From contig NC_073402.1 of assembly GCF_028641065.1 (NCBI RefSeq), forward strand, positions 28,396,001 to 28,460,000: a DNA stretch of 64,000 nucleotides, given 5' to 3'. A model generated the notes under the pieces. That model saw nothing but the letters and a program-made list of their open reading frames with translations. It had not been told where the DNA came from and searched no databases. Positions 3,301 to 63,000 of the stretch are shown piece by piece; the first letter of the stretch is position 1; every line of letters begins with the position of its first letter. Source of the stretch: Leucoraja erinacea (Eukaryota). Made by a program: the position numbers and the translations under genes.

Positions 3301-6300
3301 GATGGCCAGCTACTTTTACGTAGGTGCCTGGAGGAACCACAATATTCTCACTTCCAGCTTCCTGCATTAAAACAAACATCAGTGAAAAACAAAGTGAAGC
3401 AGAATATTTTCAAGCAGGCAAGAACAAATATAAACATGAAATAATGGCAATTATAGAGTTTGGAAAAGGGAAAGAAAGTTTATATATTATATCAGTGGTT
3501 AGATGTACCTTGTTATTCAGTCATAGGAATAAAGTTATCATGATTTGGCAGAAATCTAAACATATTAAAAAATGTTTTAGCTTCCAAGTTCTTTAGTTTA
3601 GTTTAGAGGTGCAGTGTAGAAACAGGCATTTCAGCCCACCAAGTCTATGCTGACCTGCGATCATCCATACACTTGTTCTATCCTACACGCTAGAAGCCGA
3701 TTAACCAACAAACCTGCACGGCTTAGGAATGTGGGAGGAAACTGGAGCACTTGGAGAAATCCTACACGGTCACAGGGAGAATATACAAACTTCATACGAC
3801 AGCACCCGTAATCAGGATCGAACCCAGGTCTCTAATGCTGTAAGACAGTAACTCTAACGCTGCGCCACTGTGCCGCCAAAAAAACATTAGGATCTGGAAA
3901 ACCATTCTTCAAATGGCTATACAAAAAAGCTGGAGAAACTCAGCGGGTGCAGCAGCATCTATGGAGCGAAGGAAATAGGCAACGTTTCGGGCCGAAACCC
4001 TTCTTCAGTCTGAGAAGGGTTTCGGCCCGAAACGTTGCCTATTTCCTTCGCTCCATAGATGCTGCTGCACCCGCTGAGTTTCTCCAGCTTTTTTGTGTAA
4101 CCTTCGATTCTCCAGCATCTGCAGTTCCTTCTTAAACACTTCAAATGGCTATGATGGGTGGGTTGCCGTTTGCCAGTTTCACTCAAGTCTTTCAAAATGT
4201 AACTTGAGAATCATCTATCAATGACATCTTTACCAACAATAATAACCATCATGTCAATCAGCCCATGTCCATATTGGTTCGCAGTAGAGATCGCATATCA
4301 TAACAATTCCATTTGTTCACGTTCTGCCCAAGGCCTCACAAATGAGTTCCCCACATATACCCATTCAATTCCCTTTTTAAAAGTGACCGTTTCCACCACA
4401 CGCAGATTACAAATACTCACGTTTAAAAGTTCCCCTTACATCCCTATATCACTTCAAATGTATCATTGACTCGTGAATTGTCAAAGAGAAAAGCTTCTAT
4501 GTACTCCTAAACATTATGATCTTGTACACCACATCAAATTCTTCAACTACTTGTTTTTCACCAACAACGACAAGGTATTCCAATTCATCATTGTATCCAA
4601 AATTCTTCATCCCTGGAATAATTCTAATAAATCTTTCTTGCATACTTCCTAGATTATTCACAATCTGTCCAAAGTATATTGACAATAACTGGAACAATAT
4701 TCTCATCATGGCTTATCCTGTGTATTACAAATGTTCAAAACTTCCCAACTTTTGATCTTTGCTGCTGCATCATTATCTCAGGAAACTAGAGATCTGTTCT
4801 TAGTCTTTTTCTTTCTCGTCAGGAAAGTCATTCAAAAACATAGGTTCACATGCGCACTGATATCTGCCTCACCACTACTCAACATTTCCCATGCCACGGA
4901 CACCCCAACATCACATCAATGGCCAATATTGCAAACCTGAACCATGGGTCCCTCCAAAAACTCAAGTCAATTCAACTCTTATTAGCAACCCTTTCATCGT
5001 CGTGACTATCCCTTGAGGTTGAGGATGACAGTCTACGTTCTGTTGTTTTTATGGACTCTCAGGTGGCTTATGAGTCCAATCCTGGCTTTGAAAGTTCATC
5101 GACATTCAGCACAGCTAATTCCAGATGGCAGATTGGGCTTTGGTTGTTGCTGCCTCTCTTTCCGTTTTCTTCTCTTTTCTTCTAATTCTGCGCATCTCTT
5201 GGCTTCAAAGGTCACAGTTCCTTCTTGGATTTTACACTTCTTGTGTAGGAAGGAACTGCGGATGCTGGTTTAAACCGAAGATACACACAAAATGCTGAAG
5301 TAACTCAGCGGGACAGGCAGCATCTCTGGAGGGAAGGAATGGGTGATGTTTCGGGTCGAGCCCCATCTTCAGAGTGAAGAAGTGTCTCGACCCGAAATGT
5401 AACCCATTCCTTCTCTCGCTGAGTTACTCCAGCATTTTGCGTTTATCTTCACTTTACACTTCTTTGCCCACGATATCATCTTCTAAATGTCCCATTAACC
5501 CATCTCACTGGCAAACCTGACCTCAGCCTATCACATATTCCATTTGTTTGATCAATCCCTTCCATCACCTTTGCTTCAATTTAAAACAACATTTTTTTGT
5601 TCCTTCCCAGTTTTGATAAAAATCTTCTGATCTAAAACATTAACTTTCCAAGAATACTGCCTAATCTGTTGGGCGTTAACTTTGTTTTATATTACCTTTA
5701 CCTGGGGGTTCCTGATTTTTAACTCCCAATGGTGGCCCAGACAGTTTACAACATGGATATTCTAACTCGCCTGAACTCCACATCTGCTGTTTTTCCAACA
5801 GTGCACACTTCTGTCTCAACTGCATCTCAGCTCGCCTGCATCTCAGCTCGCCTGCTGCTGAAATTTTCACTCCTTTTATCTCGATGGCAAGGCACTTTCC
5901 AGACTTTTATAAACCATTAATTTGAACTTCATTCAAAAATGTACAACTTAACCTGCTTAGCATCTGGTCCACACTTCAAATTTGAAAACACAGATTCTAA
6001 AAGCTTGCCAATGTCTTGCCCTACTTACTATGCAACCTCCACCATGCAACCCTTGGGTCTGTGCTCCTCTAAATTTTGCTCAGTCATATCTTCATCCATT
6101 GAATTATTAAGCACTGTAATTCCACTCGTGTTTTTGCTCCTCTGAGATGCACTTTAAAATCCATCCCTTTGAAAAATGCTACGTTCAAAATCTAAGCTAA
6201 ATATCATACTTTTGTTTCATTGTATCTTGAAAGACCGCCAAATGGTTTTTCTTCACTTTAGGTTCCACAAATGAAAATGTGCATGGGTATATGTTAGAAT

Positions 6301-60000: not shown

Positions 60001-63000
60001 TTTTAAGTCAGTTGGGTCTTTCATTTTTTCTAGAAAATATTACATATGTTTATGTGGTCATGGTTTAAAATTATTGAATAACCAAAACTGAGAAAACCTT
60101 AGCAATTTCAGGCCAACATTGCATACTTAAACTGAAACTTACTTTGTAGGAAATAATAGGGCATTGTCTTGATTTGGCACTCGTGGATTATAACCCGTGC
60201 AGGTTATAACTGCAAAAAGAAGATATGTATTTCAATTATGTGGAGTAGATGCTAAAGATATGGAACCTCATTACTATATTGCTATGTCAAAGGTAGATGT
60301 ATAAAATCTGTGTTTTTGCAAATCAAAACCACCAGCACTGAGTAAATGTTTTGTGATCGAGTCATTCTTGGTTCCAGCCCACTTCTTGCCTGCACAAACC
60401 TGTGAAAGGCCAATTCACACCTGGAAGGTGCCCAGCAAAATGCAAAGAGGCTTCAGTCAACTCATTAGCAAAATCCCACAGCCAGAACCACGTGACAGCT
60501 TTTAGCACGAAGCAAAGCAAGGAGGAAACCTTTGCCACGTGTCAATAGTGTAGTGGCACAGCTGGTACAACTGCTGCCTCACAGCACAAGAGACCCAAGT
60601 TCAACACTGACCTCGGATGCTGTCTGTGTGGAGTTTGCAGGTTCTCCCGCAAAATAGAAACATCTGAAGATTGCTTACTGACAATAGAAAATCAATTACC
60701 CCCTTAATTTCCGCAGTTCTGTGGCAAAAGTTCCAATTTGTAAGCTCCCCGCCACCCCAACCACAGTAAAAAAAACTCCATTAACTGTTTAGAAATCCTT
60801 CTAGTCCAGCATCTGCATCACTCAATGTCCAGAATGAGCCTGGGAGCGGGTGTCCAGAGTGCAAACACAATGTGTGACTACAGCCAGGGTGGGGATCTAG
60901 AACACGAGAGGTCAAGAAACACGAGTAGGTTTGTGGTTGGAGCCAGGGGTCGGATTGCTTATGTCCTGGAGTCATCCAGCATGGAAAAGGGCCATTCCAC
61001 TCACTATTTCCTGATCGATTTATGTACATTTAATTCACCAGATATCATACTCTTCTGCAGGTATCAATCAAGGGAATCACACTACCATTCCGACAAATGG
61101 AGAGTTAAGAGATGCAATGCCTTGTAGAAATTTAACTTTGTCCTTCACATTTTCCATTTGAAAATGTGTTGTTTTTAAGCTGAAATATCCATGCCTCTGC
61201 TTCAATAGTTCTTAGTGTTTCCCCCCCCCCCCCCCCCCCCCCCCCCCCCCCCCCAATCTAAAACACACCTTTCAGATACAGATCCCTCATCTTTTACTCA
61301 CTCGCGTCTTATTCTCCCAAAACATTGCCCTGCAAATTTCTGTGCACTGACCATGAAGTGACCCTTAGCCACCCAACAAATCCCTTCTGCAGGACACGCT
61401 ATCTTTAGGGATAGGACCCCCAGGAAGAATAAGAGAAAACACACTCATAAAAGAAAGGACTTTGGAAGTATTTAGCCTAGATTTCAACGCGACACACTTG
61501 ACTGAAAGCATTTAGAGTCAAAGAGATATTTAGCACGGCCTGACTCATCCAGGTCAATCAAGTTGCCTAATAGCTATTCCCACTCGCTTGCACATGGGCC
61601 CATACCCCCTCTGAACCATTCCTATCCATGCGGCTGTCCAAGCATCTTTTAAATGTTGTTATTGTACCCACCTCCTCTGGCAACTCATTCCACATCTGCA
61701 ACATCCTCTGTGTGGAAAGAGCTGCCTCTCAGGACCCTTTGTAATCTTTCCCCTCTCACCTTAAACCTATGTCCTCTAGTTTCAGACTCCCCAACCCAAG
61801 TGATGGGTCTAACCTATGCCCCTCATTTCTCTCATCTTCAACCAACCTACAATCGGAGTCTTAACTTGTGTAAACAGCACATCTTTGCACAATAAAACTA
61901 CAAAGGTCTTACCCGAGCCAGGAAATGTATCAATGGATCTGTTCCCTGTCGCAGTCTCAGATTCACTGCTCCGAGTCGCTTCACTTTTAACTACATAAAG
62001 AACAAATATTATTACAACCAATTTGGGTTCAAAGGAATTCTTTTTTTTTTTCCATTTTGACATAGTCACAATTCTCAAGAAATACTTCATATTAGGTGGC
62101 AAAACAGCAAAGGATTATTCCTCTGAAGTAGACAAAGGGAAACAATTTAATATAAATGCAAGAAGTTTAAATCTATTAGGCAGGAAGAGATAGATAAGAA
62201 ATAGCTTGGGGGGTAATAATGCTATACAGAAAATGTATTGAAGAGAACTAGGAGATTAAGGGAAAAGTGGATCCACAAGTCAATAGAAGATGAAACTAGA
62301 GGCAGGCACAAAATGGTGGAGTAACTCAGCGGGCAGGCAACATCTCTGGAGAGAAGGAATGGGTGGCGTTTCGGGTCGAGACCCTCTTCAGACTGATGTC
62401 AGGGGAGTGGGCGGGATAGAGATAGAATGTAGTCGGAGACAGTAAGACTGGTGGGAGAACTGGGAAGGGGGAGGGAGGGAAAGCAAGGACTATTTGAAGT
62501 AAGAGGTCAATGTTCATACCGCTGGGGTGTAAGCTACCCAAGCGAAATATGAGGTGCTGTTCCTACAATTTGCACTGGGCCTCACTCTGACAATGGAAGA
62601 GGCCCAGGACAGAAAGGTCAGGATGGGAAGGGGAGGAGGAGTTAAAGTGCTGAGCAACCAGAGTACTATTCATTGTTTGAGCCATAGTGGTGACTGAACT
62701 ATTTGCATTTGGAAAGTCAAATAAGGTAGAGAATATTTAATAAATGGTAGGGCACCAAGGAATATGGATGAACAGAGAGACCCCTAGGTGCACGGTTCCT
62801 TGAAACTGGCAACCCAGGTTGATAGTGGAGTGAAGAAAGCGTATCGCCTCCTTGCCTTTATAGAGTGAGTTTGATATCTGGAATATGCTGCCAGAGGAGG
62901 TGGAGGAATCAGATACAATTACTAAGTTTAAGTGGCATTTACTCAGACACTTAGAGGCAAGGATACAGTCCTAATGCAAGCAAACAGAATTAGTGCAACT

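Follow-up and report, generated by a model that had tools for sequence, protein, structure and literature searches.

The 64-kb window of rajid skate DNA (the whole stretch analysed) carries 33 arms of one repeat family at 24 loci. Very probably they are dead, 5′-truncated copies of the pLTR-plus-tail 3′ end of a Neptune-type Penelope-like element (PLE) that date from two or more insertion waves, besides older remnants, and were inserted by the mechanism proposed below.

Extent and affiliation of the repeat family

To collect the arms an HMM seeded with 13 copies was used. At a cut-off of E<1e-4 it gave 34 matches covering 4194 bp (6.6% of the window), one of which, a GIY-YIG-only piece, was dropped; the top match in the reversed window had E=0.91. 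The about 20 copies, one per 3 kb, of the first-pass annotation were thus a fair or slightly low estimate. The arm layout comprises the GIY-YIG C-terminus, a pyrimidine spacer, a minimal type I hammerhead, about 100 nt and an optional terminal tail of about 35 nt (Table 1). Besides older remnants, two main subfamilies are present, A with approximately 5% and B with approximately 10% non-CpG divergence, as expected from at least two insertion waves. The copies had been placed in four genes, and 28 of the 33 arms do lie within the spans of RPA2, SMPDL3B, an XK-family gene and EYA3; the remaining five, located in the interval from RPA2 exon 2 to the SMPDL3B start codon, were counted to neither gene.

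In four long copies (25622, 26466, 53746 and 62300) the GIY-YIG C-terminus runs directly into the spacer and motif. Its nearest relative, 83% identical, is also from Leucoraja erinacea; others were found in whale shark, stingray and sevengill shark, and profile matches include 813-924-aa proteins with RVT_1 plus GIY-YIG. The PLE origin claimed earlier is supported by this junction and by these relatives, which comprise proteins from sharks and rays as well as full-length RT+GIY-YIG ORFs. A tblastn search with 165 related proteins revealed no PLE RT remnant in the window, matching only GIY-YIG C-termini and unrelated LINE pieces, so the proposed link to an RT/GIY-YIG ORF is direct for the GIY-YIG end and runs through the relatives for the RT. 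GIY-YIG C-termini were confirmed at all three loci where a peptide had been reported, but the peptide quoted is a composite found exactly in no copy, and position 62305, given for it, is the 3′ end of the element. Close relatives carry a CX2-5CxxC linker, a mark of Neptune/Nematis (PMC8557442), and we provisionally regard the element, represented in the window by 3′ stubs, as a Neptune-type PLE.

Long inverted repeats with target-site duplications (TSDs), together with sub-threshold Rfam miRNA matches (e.g., mir-722 at 50 bits), might instead recall miniature inverted-repeat DNA transposons or miRNA precursors. Yet no miRNA match reaches its gathering score (81 for mir-722), pair centres and TSD lengths vary, and solo arms are frequent. 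This reading, to which we give practically no credence, is contradicted by the unequal arms and by the contiguous PLE coding sequence of the GIY-YIG ORF end.

Table 1. Loci of the repeat family, with their parts, hammerheads and TSDs (empty cells, nothing recorded).
Locus	Strand	Gene context	Class	Parts and junction	Hammerhead	TSD
3918..4138		RPA2 intron	inverted pair A	tail-less 3918-4013(-), tailed 3997-4138(+); meet on TCAG-n-CTGA palindrome	3981-4008 exact in tail-less arm; 1-nt core deletion in tailed arm	14 nt, at 3907 and 4139
5241..5459		RPA2 intron	inverted pair B	tailed 5241-5377(-), tail-less 5369-5459(+); centre TCAG-n-CTGA palindrome		12 nt, at 5231 and 5453
9726..9829	+	RPA2 intron	diverged solo arm	28% from B majority	degenerate
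14780..15004			inverted pair B	tailed 14780-14905(-), tail-less 14910-15004(+); short central spacer		none found
16497..16626	-		solo tailed arm B	starts 3 nt before core	core intact, one additional A behind GAAA
16660..16859			inverted pair	tail-less 16660-16749(-), tailed 16738-16859(+); stem II palindrome junction	without CUGA core
24679..24715	+	SMPDL3B intron	tail-only fragment
25622..25972	+	SMPDL3B intron, sense	long copy B	GIY-YIG C-terminus 25623-25733(+), pyrimidine spacer, hammerhead, tail	25841-25868(+), core intact; CpG transition in stem III palindrome	14 nt, 2 mismatches
26466..26740	-	SMPDL3B intron, antisense	long copy A	last 15 GIY-YIG ORF codons 26695-26739(-), spacer, tail; 1.7% from A majority	26567-26594(-), the one minimal type I hammerhead still fully intact in its native context
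31059..31210	+	XK-family gene intron	solo arm B	plus 30 nt spacer	core intact; G10.1-C11.1 now G.U
32144..32256	+		solo arm B		truncation within core
33186..33253	-		solo tailed arm A		without hammerhead	14 nt, at 33169 and 33256
33427..33553	-		old diverged arm	28% diverged	degenerate
42261..42641		last EYA3 intron	complex locus	GIY-YIG piece 42261-42413(+) (C-terminus 42262-42402(+)), arm 42415-42476(-), ~80-nt spacer, tailed arm 42554-42641(+)	without hammerhead
44740..45060			inverted pair B	tail-less 44740-44841(-), tailed 44926-45060(+); central third arm, tail-less 44843-44929(-), flanked by 9-nt direct repeats		one, 15 nt, around pair
47176..47364			inverted pair A	tailed 47176-47295(-), tail-less 47281-47364(+); GTTTCG-n3-CGAAAC hairpin junction		13 nt, 1 mismatch
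47999..48081	+		solo tail-less arm B	starts in stem II
48299..48950 (right end approximate)	+		older PLE subfamily remnant	HMM E=0.02; decayed GIY-YIG end 48299-48435, long pyrimidine spacer	degenerate, near 48849
48455..48553	-		solo tail-less arm A	inside older copy 48299..48950(+)	48523-48550(-), core intact; stem II GGGT-TTCT-TCCC (3 bp plus U.U)	14 nt
52360..52521			inverted pair A	tailed 52360-52466(-), tail-less 52463-52521(+); 4-nt microhomology junction at GAAAC		14 nt, 2 mismatches
52648..52752	-		solo tail-less arm B	starts 3 nt before core	core mutated
53424..53576			old inverted pair	tail-less 53424-53490(-), tailed 53497-53576(+)		13 nt
53746..54016	-		long copy A	last 15 GIY-YIG ORF codons 53972-54016(-), spacer, tail	7-nt deletion takes out GAAA
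62300..62659	-		long tail-less copy B	GIY-YIG C-terminus 62503-62658(-), one stop codon inside; spacer	62366-62391(-), one A lost, U16.1 changed

State of the hammerhead motif

Three sites had been called intact. The motif pattern matched exactly at 3981-4008(-) and 26567-26594(-), but at 48523-48550(-) stem II is damaged. With up to five substitutions allowed, 14 sites were found in the window vs. an average of 0 in 10 Markov-shuffled windows, and the mutated motifs reported at 14918, 25841, 31091 and 62365 are present and altered as described. The hammerhead is spanned by 18 arms at 14 loci; 8 of these retain the complete set of 11 core nucleotides together with a cleavable position 17, and a strict minimal-hammerhead descriptor was passed by two (25841+ and 26567-; 0 in 40 shuffles), so that about 20 ribozyme-bearing copies was an overstatement. 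The motif at 26567-26594(-) is built of CUGAAGA, an extra A, a 4-bp stem II, GAAA and an ACGU palindrome, with the cut predicted between 26567 and 26566, while replacement of the core-adjacent U by A has cost the copies at 3981 and 48523 a stem I pair. No Rfam hammerhead match was obtained in the window. The motif fits the published consensus for minimal hammerheads, CUGANGAH-G..C-GAAA-palindrome-UH, down to the additional base between 9 and 10.1 that had been recognised earlier (PMC4209133 supplement). A separate HDV-like ribozyme fold was seen at 29212-29263(+).

Across copies, the excess conservation of the core over its flanks that the first-pass annotation had looked to was not significant in subfamily A (6/73 vs. 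37/578, p=0.61) or B (9/127 vs. 131/992, p=0.06). This is expected of dead copies and argues against use by the host, not against PLE origin. Co-option by the host, with the copies acting in introns as ribozymes or hairpins that regulate RPA2, SMPDL3B, the XK gene or EYA3, is very improbable, even with most arms inside genes, five of the six intragenic core-intact arms in sense orientation, and inverted pairs that form long perfect hairpins (3918..4138 folds as a single hairpin of about 90 bp, z -29). The stems show ordinary CpG decay, intragenic arms are oriented both ways (16 sense, 12 antisense), and the sole perfect copy runs antisense to the gene it sits in. Most likely, the isolated copies in introns are passengers without activity.

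The majority sequences of A and B differ at 0 of 11 core positions, which is not significant alone (downstream, 13 of 95 differ). Their six other motif differences sit in loops or preserve pairing, which bears out the two subfamilies with maintained stem II pairing. Each of these differences would still permit cleavage; this includes U/C at position 17 as well as the U.G/U-A pairs of stems I and II. The earlier caution about stem I was justified: the predicted helices are weak (stem I 2 bp, stem II 4 bp), monomer folds are no more stable than those of shuffled sequences (z -1.5 to +0.75), the active double-hammerhead fold lies about 20 kcal/mol above the dimer minimum, and covariation does not exceed that of shuffled data (247/500). 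Upstream, the core adjoins a tract of 73-93% pyrimidine with CAG at its end, and it overlaps TCAGTCT, initiator-like by the Inr consensus. Both subfamilies have one nearly open frame across the tail region, and no PLE N-terminus match to it was found.

Such weak helices, the pyrimidine tract and the initiator-like sequence would also suit a hammerhead that is non-catalytic even in the parent and retained as a promoter, splice-acceptor or protein-binding element. Eight of nine Xenopus dimers failed to cleave, the D. virilis intron end abuts helix I (PMC4209133), and hammerhead mutants left anole PLE insertion in vitro unaffected (PMC11167929). We consider this reading doubtful, though to be taken seriously, as cleavage is compatible with every A/B difference in the motif, a 2-bp helix I is known from PLE hammerheads of Culex, D. 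virilis and Oikopleura (PMC4209133), and the anole hammerhead does cleave with protein (PMC11167929). In an active parent, cleavage by the hammerhead would probably require both a dimer and assistance from protein, and would serve to process tandem transcripts.

Insertion junctions and proposed mechanism

TSDs were called at a score of at least 8, which 3.3% of 600 random intervals reach. They were found at 11 of the 24 loci, mostly 12-15 nt long, including six of the eight joined inverted pairs, and none was above threshold at the other 13 loci. The 3′ ends are bimodal, with 13 arms at +52..+77 and 20 at +84..+104. Each joined pair has one tailed and one tail-less arm (8/8, P<=0.004); if the spacer-separated pair 42415/42554, in which both arms extend into the tail, is scored as a failure, 8/9 remain (P<=0.02). 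The tail is missing from 5 of 15 solo arms as well, so the +66 end arises without inversion. Among 5′ ends, 13 of 33 lie at -40..-29, at or just before the core, and nine at -28..0, while none of the 33 arms starts at the predicted hammerhead cut site (-2..+3). Five of the eight pair centres fall on self-complementary sequence (TCAG-n-CTGA in three pairs, stem II in one and the GTTTCG/CGAAAC hairpin in one), and paired arms are mutually nearest relatives in just two of eight cases (ranks 1, 4, 6, 2, 10, 2, 1, 26). The third arm at 44740..45060 reads best as a later insertion into the pair. The tail asymmetry, TSDs and 5′-end clustering had been missed by the first-pass annotation.

This pattern fits two-strand, two-site priming on uncleaved RNA. 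The element's GIY-YIG endonuclease would cut both DNA strands approximately 12-15 nt apart, and reverse transcription would start internally on an RNA not yet cleaved by its hammerhead, at either of two fixed sites about +100 or +66 from the cut site. Priming by a single DNA end would give a solo arm. If both ends prime, one per site, the two cDNAs would extend toward the RNA 5′ end and be joined where short self-complementary stretches, mostly belonging to the ribozyme, anneal. The product would be an inverted pair carrying a single tail. In many cases the template may be a short RNA whose start, probably set by a pLTR initiator, lies about 3 nt upstream of the core.

Alternatively, a tail-started cDNA could snap back on the ribozyme palindrome, copy itself and stop short of the tail. 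Such fold-back also predicts a single tailed arm per pair, agrees with the self-complementary centres and with the partner ranks of the three young A pairs (1, 2, 1), and is possible, if clearly the less probable route. It leaves unexplained why the second arm ends in the +61..+77 zone, like the five tail-less solo arms; moreover, the arms at 52360 and 53424 differ strongly in their 5′ ends and are joined by microhomology or a short insert, and a hairpin with a 1-3-nt loop would be expected to prime poorly. The gathering of 5′ ends within a few bases of the core could likewise point to a short non-autonomous master (SINE-like or a retrozyme monomer, about 135 nt long, beginning shortly before the core and running to the tail) that is mobilised in trans, and not to truncation of full PLE RNA; animal retrozymes have been proposed to be pLTR-derived and occur as monomers, including one chondrichthyan (10.64898/2026.07.22.740005). 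We find this unlikely: five arms extend upstream into the spacer, four of these as far as the end of the GIY-YIG ORF, and they show the same subfamily variants; the window contains no two complete hammerheads in head-to-tail order; and short pLTR-initiated RNAs would already account for the cluster.

Comparison with known elements

Hammerheads in PLE pLTRs, with thousands of dispersed single motifs per vertebrate genome, have been published for coelacanth and Xenopus (PMC4209133). The metazoan examples described there (Xena, Poseidon, Neptune) share with the skate motif CUGANGA plus the extra base, G10.1-C11.1, GAAA, a 2-nt palindrome and UH, and are likewise mostly dispersed single motifs from truncated PLEs, with opposite-strand pairs nearby. 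The skate motif stands at the weak end of that alignment (stem II 4 bp; stem I 2 bp, U.G/U-A plus G-C), and no chondrichthyan terms were found in supplementary file 2 of that paper. Neptune-clade EN+ PLEs (PMC8557442) show the same C-terminal GIY-YIG, 5′ truncation, adjacent inverted 5′-truncated copy and 30-40-bp tail, often at one end only, and the linker seen in the skate element's close relatives; the window, in contrast, holds only 3′ stubs.

PAc, the Poseidon element of Anolis carolinensis, belongs to a different clade. In vitro it cuts and extends both strands, starts reverse transcription at two internal sites that define the tail, and uses uncleaved RNA as template, its hammerhead being protein-assisted; like the skate copies, it has no ends at the hammerhead cut site (PMC11167929). 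The PAc ORF begins in stem II, whereas the skate has the near-open tail-region frame, to which no PLE N-terminus matched. Inverted pairs within a single TSD, one arm per start site, are a skate feature of which we found no description for PAc in the sections of that paper available. Drosophila virilis Penelope (PMC2377424; PMC4209133) has a pLTR with an internal TATA-less promoter, a 34-bp tail and inverted terminal copies, and shares the 2-bp helix I and an intron acceptor beside it; unlike those of Penelope, the promoter and acceptor of the skate element are putative, read from sequence, and no spliced copy was seen in the window. Non-LTR retrozymes (10.64898/2026.07.22.740005; PMC7229834) share the type I hammerhead, pLTR-related sequence and dispersed monomers, but the skate copies lack consecutive complete hammerheads in tandem and have a minimal, not canonical, hammerhead.

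The repeats are thus ordinary in kind, leftover ends of a known type of Penelope-like retrotransposon with a self-cutting RNA motif. Their main interest lies in the junctions, as the mirror-image pairs are a clear record of how such elements insert.

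Copies of the repeat and their genomic setting

A profile HMM built from 13 copies of the repeat gave 34 matches at E<1e-4, which cover 6.6% of the window; the best match in the reversed-window control had E=0.91. After removal of one GIY-YIG-only piece, 33 arms (5′-truncated 3′ ends of one Penelope-like element, PLE, family) were retained at 24 loci, i.e. about one insertion per 2.7 kb, which bears out the density of about one copy per 3 kb proposed in the first-pass annotation. Four weak matches to older subfamilies (20135, 33815, 48115, and 48299; E 0.02–0.24) and three short weak ones (14539, 15012, and 55728) were left uncounted. 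Motif sites with at most 5 substitutions numbered 14 in the window vs. 0 in 10 shuffles.

Intragenic arms showed no orientation bias against sense copies (16 sense vs. 12 antisense). The window comes from a rajid skate: across the SMPDL3B exon (27741-28115), identity is 98% with SMPDL3B of Leucoraja erinacea and 64–77% with that of other rays and sharks. Because EYA3 beyond ~60200 is supported by a single doubtful exon candidate (63212-63327), the 62300 copy can be called intronic only tentatively. Gene models elsewhere in L. erinacea also contain the repeat; skate gene models take up these PLE repeats as spurious coding segments, and the repeats mimic miRNA hairpins as well. Rfam miRNA matches were sub-threshold hairpin artefacts and a miRNA identity was rejected, as was a MITE identity.

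Host genes, centres of the joined inverted pairs (by locus start), and other elements in the window
Feature	Position	Strand	Remark
RPA2	exon 7822-7935	minus	matches RPA32 structures
RPA2, further presumed exons	near 391-513, 1225, 3307, 9538, 10098		located via known motifs
SMPDL3B	18103-28118	plus	
XK-related gene	about 30272-35373	plus	presumably XKR8 (name from synteny)
EYA3	exons from 42067 upward	minus	best match EYA3; exons chosen by eye
Pair centre	3918, 5241, 44740 (nested arm removed)		TCAG-n-CTGA at core's 5′ edge
Pair centre	14780		adjoining TCAG-n-CTGA
Pair centre	16660		stem II
Pair centre	47176		competing hairpin spanning stem II and GAAA
Pair centre	52360		4-nt microhomology
Pair centre	53424		short insert
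Arm 48455	inside 48299-48950(+)	minus	within older PLE copy
Arm 44843	44835-44934	minus	in palindromic centre of older pair
Decayed older-subfamily arms	20135-20200(-), 33815-33860(+), 48115-48183(-)		heavily decayed; weak HMM matches; one with TGATGAAGGG core variant
Gypsy-like LTR retrotransposon	10613-14114		young; 191-nt direct repeats, 98% identical
Its pol frame	10978-13104	minus	RNase H and integrase
Its gag-like frame	13010-13894	minus	label by eye
LINE RT, C-terminal half	22527-24101	plus	SMPDL3B intron; open, 524 aa; Pfam RVT_1 and ALKBH8_N; not PLE-related
LINE fragments	21313-21585, 33903-34346, 38908-39486, 43657-44412		presumably CR1-like
Recurrent ~90-nt 3′-end family, short copies	near 2040, 15570, 21966, 46455, 54582		presumably CR1-like
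GC-rich tandem repeat	6759-7172		RPA2 intron; 19-21-nt unit
Assembly gap (219-nt N run)	31285-31503		XK-gene intron; 70 nt beyond 31059 arm

Two main subfamilies were distinguished, A (13 arms, median non-CpG divergence 5.4%) and B (20 arms, 10.5%). They differ at none of the 11 core positions, at 6 of the 26 other motif positions and at 13 of 95 positions downstream, while their reference copies share 60% identity upstream of the core. All six differences in the rest of the motif sit in loops or preserve pairing; the proposed division into two subfamilies is confirmed, and their one-sided differences leave the stems paired. Further decayed remnants point to older waves, and PLE arms lying within earlier PLE copies suggest targeting of pre-existing copies.

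Element identity

A GIY-YIG C-terminus, a pyrimidine-rich spacer and the hammerhead motif are contiguous in four copies (25622, 26466, 53746, and 62300), and 42261 holds a fifth GIY-YIG piece; a C-terminal GIY-YIG directly upstream of the pLTR is the arrangement of EN+ PLEs. Taken alone, the 52-AA GIY-YIG piece of the window had no Pfam match. Sixteen of 20 candidates were relatives of it, the top one, from L. erinacea, sharing 83% identity. In related proteins Pfam GIY-YIG scores at the cut-off or close to it. A profile search returned 5513 representatives at E<=0.001; six named ones among ten looked up came from whale shark, little skate, stingray, and sevengill shark. RVT_1 together with GIY-YIG was found in 7 of 10 related proteins scanned, which are distant relatives and not the skate parent. 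The CX2-5CxxC linker occurs in the long full-length relatives and in two batoid (skate, ray) proteins, P0028 and P0029; the copies in the window begin only downstream of this region. According to PMC8557442, the linker marks Neptune and Nematis elements alike.

Neither a PLE RT remnant nor a full-length copy of the element was detected in the 64-kb window, where the RTs belong to the gypsy-like element and LINEs. The suggested linkage to a PLE RT/GIY-YIG open reading frame was confirmed for its GIY-YIG part and is putative for the RT. Two further traits of EN+ PLEs were observed, namely 5′-truncated copies beside an inverted copy (8 joined inverted pairs) and a facultative tail of 30-40 bp, in many cases confined to one end, as seen in the 3′ end classes and the asymmetry of the pairs. 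Inverted copies and one-sided tails have already been described for PLEs (PMC8557442). The repeat works like an EN+ PLE bearing a minimal hammerhead, which it very probably is.

The post-ribozyme region (26465-26590(-) and equivalents) has one frame open in A and nearly open in B, and the +1 and +2 A/B indels in the tail region restore one reading frame. In a homolog search with the tail region as the N-terminus of an open reading frame no PLE N-terminus was matched; the search returned only host gene models holding the repeat and one protein without PLE similarity.

Sequence and predicted activity of the hammerhead

Both subfamily majorities have the minimal type I core (C3-A9, G12-A14, A15.1, U16.1, H17), with the extra base between 9 and 10.1, the G10.1-C11.1 pair and the palindromic 15.2-16.2 of the published consensus. 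The first-pass reading of a minimal type I hammerhead with an extra A agrees point for point with the PLE consensus of PMC4209133, which also holds precedents for PLE hammerheads with a 2-bp helix I. The number of ribozyme-bearing copies, put earlier at about 20, had to be lowered: the hammerhead is spanned by 18 of the 33 arms, of which 8 retain the full 11-base core plus position 17; four of these eight also pass a loose stem test, and the strict descriptor matched twice in the window vs. 0 in 40 shuffles. Three sites had been called intact. The one at 26567-26594(-) is the single perfect hammerhead in native context, its predicted cut falling between 26567 and 26566; that at 3981 is exact, but the 5′ strand of its stem I comes from the inverted arm, and at 48523 stem II is damaged.

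Stem III can form only intermolecularly, via ACGU. Monomer folds were no better than shuffles, and for 26567 the active dimer was predicted at −7.1 kcal/mol vs. −28.8 for the best dimer fold in a nearest-neighbour model, which ignores tertiary contacts and protein. Across 13 of the 18 spanning arms stem II was paired at 91.5% and stem I at 67%, no two-sided change in stem II was present, and the covariation equalled the shuffled score. Rfam hammerhead models gave no match at E<=1 in the window, nor at E<=10 in 26480-26700. The proposed check for excess conservation of the core over its flanks across copies revealed none (p=0.61 and 0.06). As modeled, the evidence for hammerhead activity here is weak; the motif is probably upheld in master elements, the dispersed copies being passengers. 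Low or protein-dependent cleavage has been reported for such motifs in published assays (PMC4209133, PMC11167929, and 10.64898/2026.07.22.740005).

Non-LTR retrozymes are marked by tandem repeats in which two or more complete hammerheads follow one another, and no such run was found in the window. In the only head-to-tail neighbours (44740/44843 and 16497/16660) one partner of each has no core, and the repeat is not a retrozyme array.

Separately, an HDV/CPEB3-like fold was noted at 29212-29263(+), ~1.1 kb past the SMPDL3B stop codon and 1.0 kb ahead of the XK-gene start codon. It scored 29.4 bits against the CPEB3 ribozyme model, below the gathering score of 35 (E=9e-4 in the whole window). 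The fold has a 6-bp P1 starting from G.U, a 7-bp P2, a 3-bp P3, a 7-nt L3 beginning UUC, a CNAA junction, and a P4 shrunk to a short linker; the predicted cut would lie directly 5′ of G29212, with C29253 as the putative catalytic residue. An HDV descriptor, composed after the site had been seen, matched only here in the window and 0 times in 40 shuffles, and no second copy of the fold was found in the window. A literature search yielded nothing on HDV-like motifs in skates, and the fold may merit separate study.

Insertion junctions and the origin of inverted pairs

Counted from the predicted hammerhead cut, the 3′ ends of the arms fall into two groups ~35 nt apart, 13 at +52..+77 and 20 at +84..+104, mostly concentrated at +61..+77 vs. 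+98..+104. This offset matches the PLE tail as described in PMC11167929 and PMC8557442. TSDs (target-site duplications; score >=8) were detected at 11 of 24 loci vs. 3.3% of 600 random intervals; nine measured 12-15 nt and two 9 nt. A single TSD encloses 6 of the 8 joined inverted pairs, and each of these is therefore one event. All eight pairs combine a tailed with a tail-less arm (P=0.0015 if the tail frequency is taken from solo arms, 10/15; at most 0.004). The 42415/42554 arms were kept out of this test because of their ~80-nt separation; scored as a failure, they leave the asymmetry at 8/9 (P<=0.02).

Among the 33 5′ ends (those of 44843 and 53424 set by eye; arms of one pair non-independent), 5 lie upstream of −40, 13 at −40..−29, 9 at −28..0, and 6 further downstream. 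From these positions it follows that the template of 27 of the 33 arms was RNA that this hammerhead had not cut. No 5′ end was located at −2..+3, so no end of cleaved RNA was seen.

These junctions may be explained by a DNA cut staggered by 12-15 nt, both ends of which would prime, one at each RT start site, with the cDNA ends then annealing at palindromes of the ribozyme sequence. Many templates would begin ~3 nt before the core, at the initiator-like TCAGTCT. We put forward as a possible, though rather doubtful, reading that the inverted pairs are fossils of such asymmetric two-primer integration. One RNP with two fixed RT starts ~35 nt apart would make both arms, the hammerhead palindromes would clasp the cDNAs as DNA, and the source RNA, starting ~3 nt before the core, would have a 5′ hammerhead that lacks most of stem I and so is unable to cut. 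A live alternative is fold-back, by which one cDNA copies itself into an inverted pair; it stays live because the partner ranks within pairs do not discriminate. The two arms of a pair may derive from one RNA or from two. For another PLE clade, PMC11167929 describes cutting of both strands, two internal RT starts, an uncleaved template and protein-assisted cleavage, and leaves the final integration step unvalidated. The Penelope pLTR holds a TATA-less internal promoter (PMC2377424).

By analogy with D. virilis (PMC4209133), the pre-core pyrimidine tract with its CAG could also act as a splice acceptor. Spliced copies were not seen among the window arms, and a spliced template via the pre-core CAG is unsupported, as no upstream sequence is common to the solo arms that begin there.

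That minimal hammerheads occur in PLEs, whose truncated copies abound in the genomes of fishes, amphibians, and reptiles, is already known. In a search of openly available papers we found no description of the skate family, which Repbase, Dfam or supplementary file 1 of PMC4209133 could contain, and no account of two-primer formation of PLE inverted pairs. By a term search, the word “Penelope” is absent from the main text of the genome papers on little skate and catshark. The retrozyme preprint 10.64898/2026.07.22.740005 covers a chondrichthyan species, named only in its supplements, which could likewise contain the skate family. If two-primer integration is true, the ribozyme sequence would act non-catalytically to close insertions, and the asymmetric tails of PLEs would have a direct mechanistic explanation. 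With insertions this dense and with clean TSDs, the skate genome should offer enough inverted pairs for testing how PLE integration is finished, and its copies are also a resource on whether hammerhead cleavage ever shapes the template.
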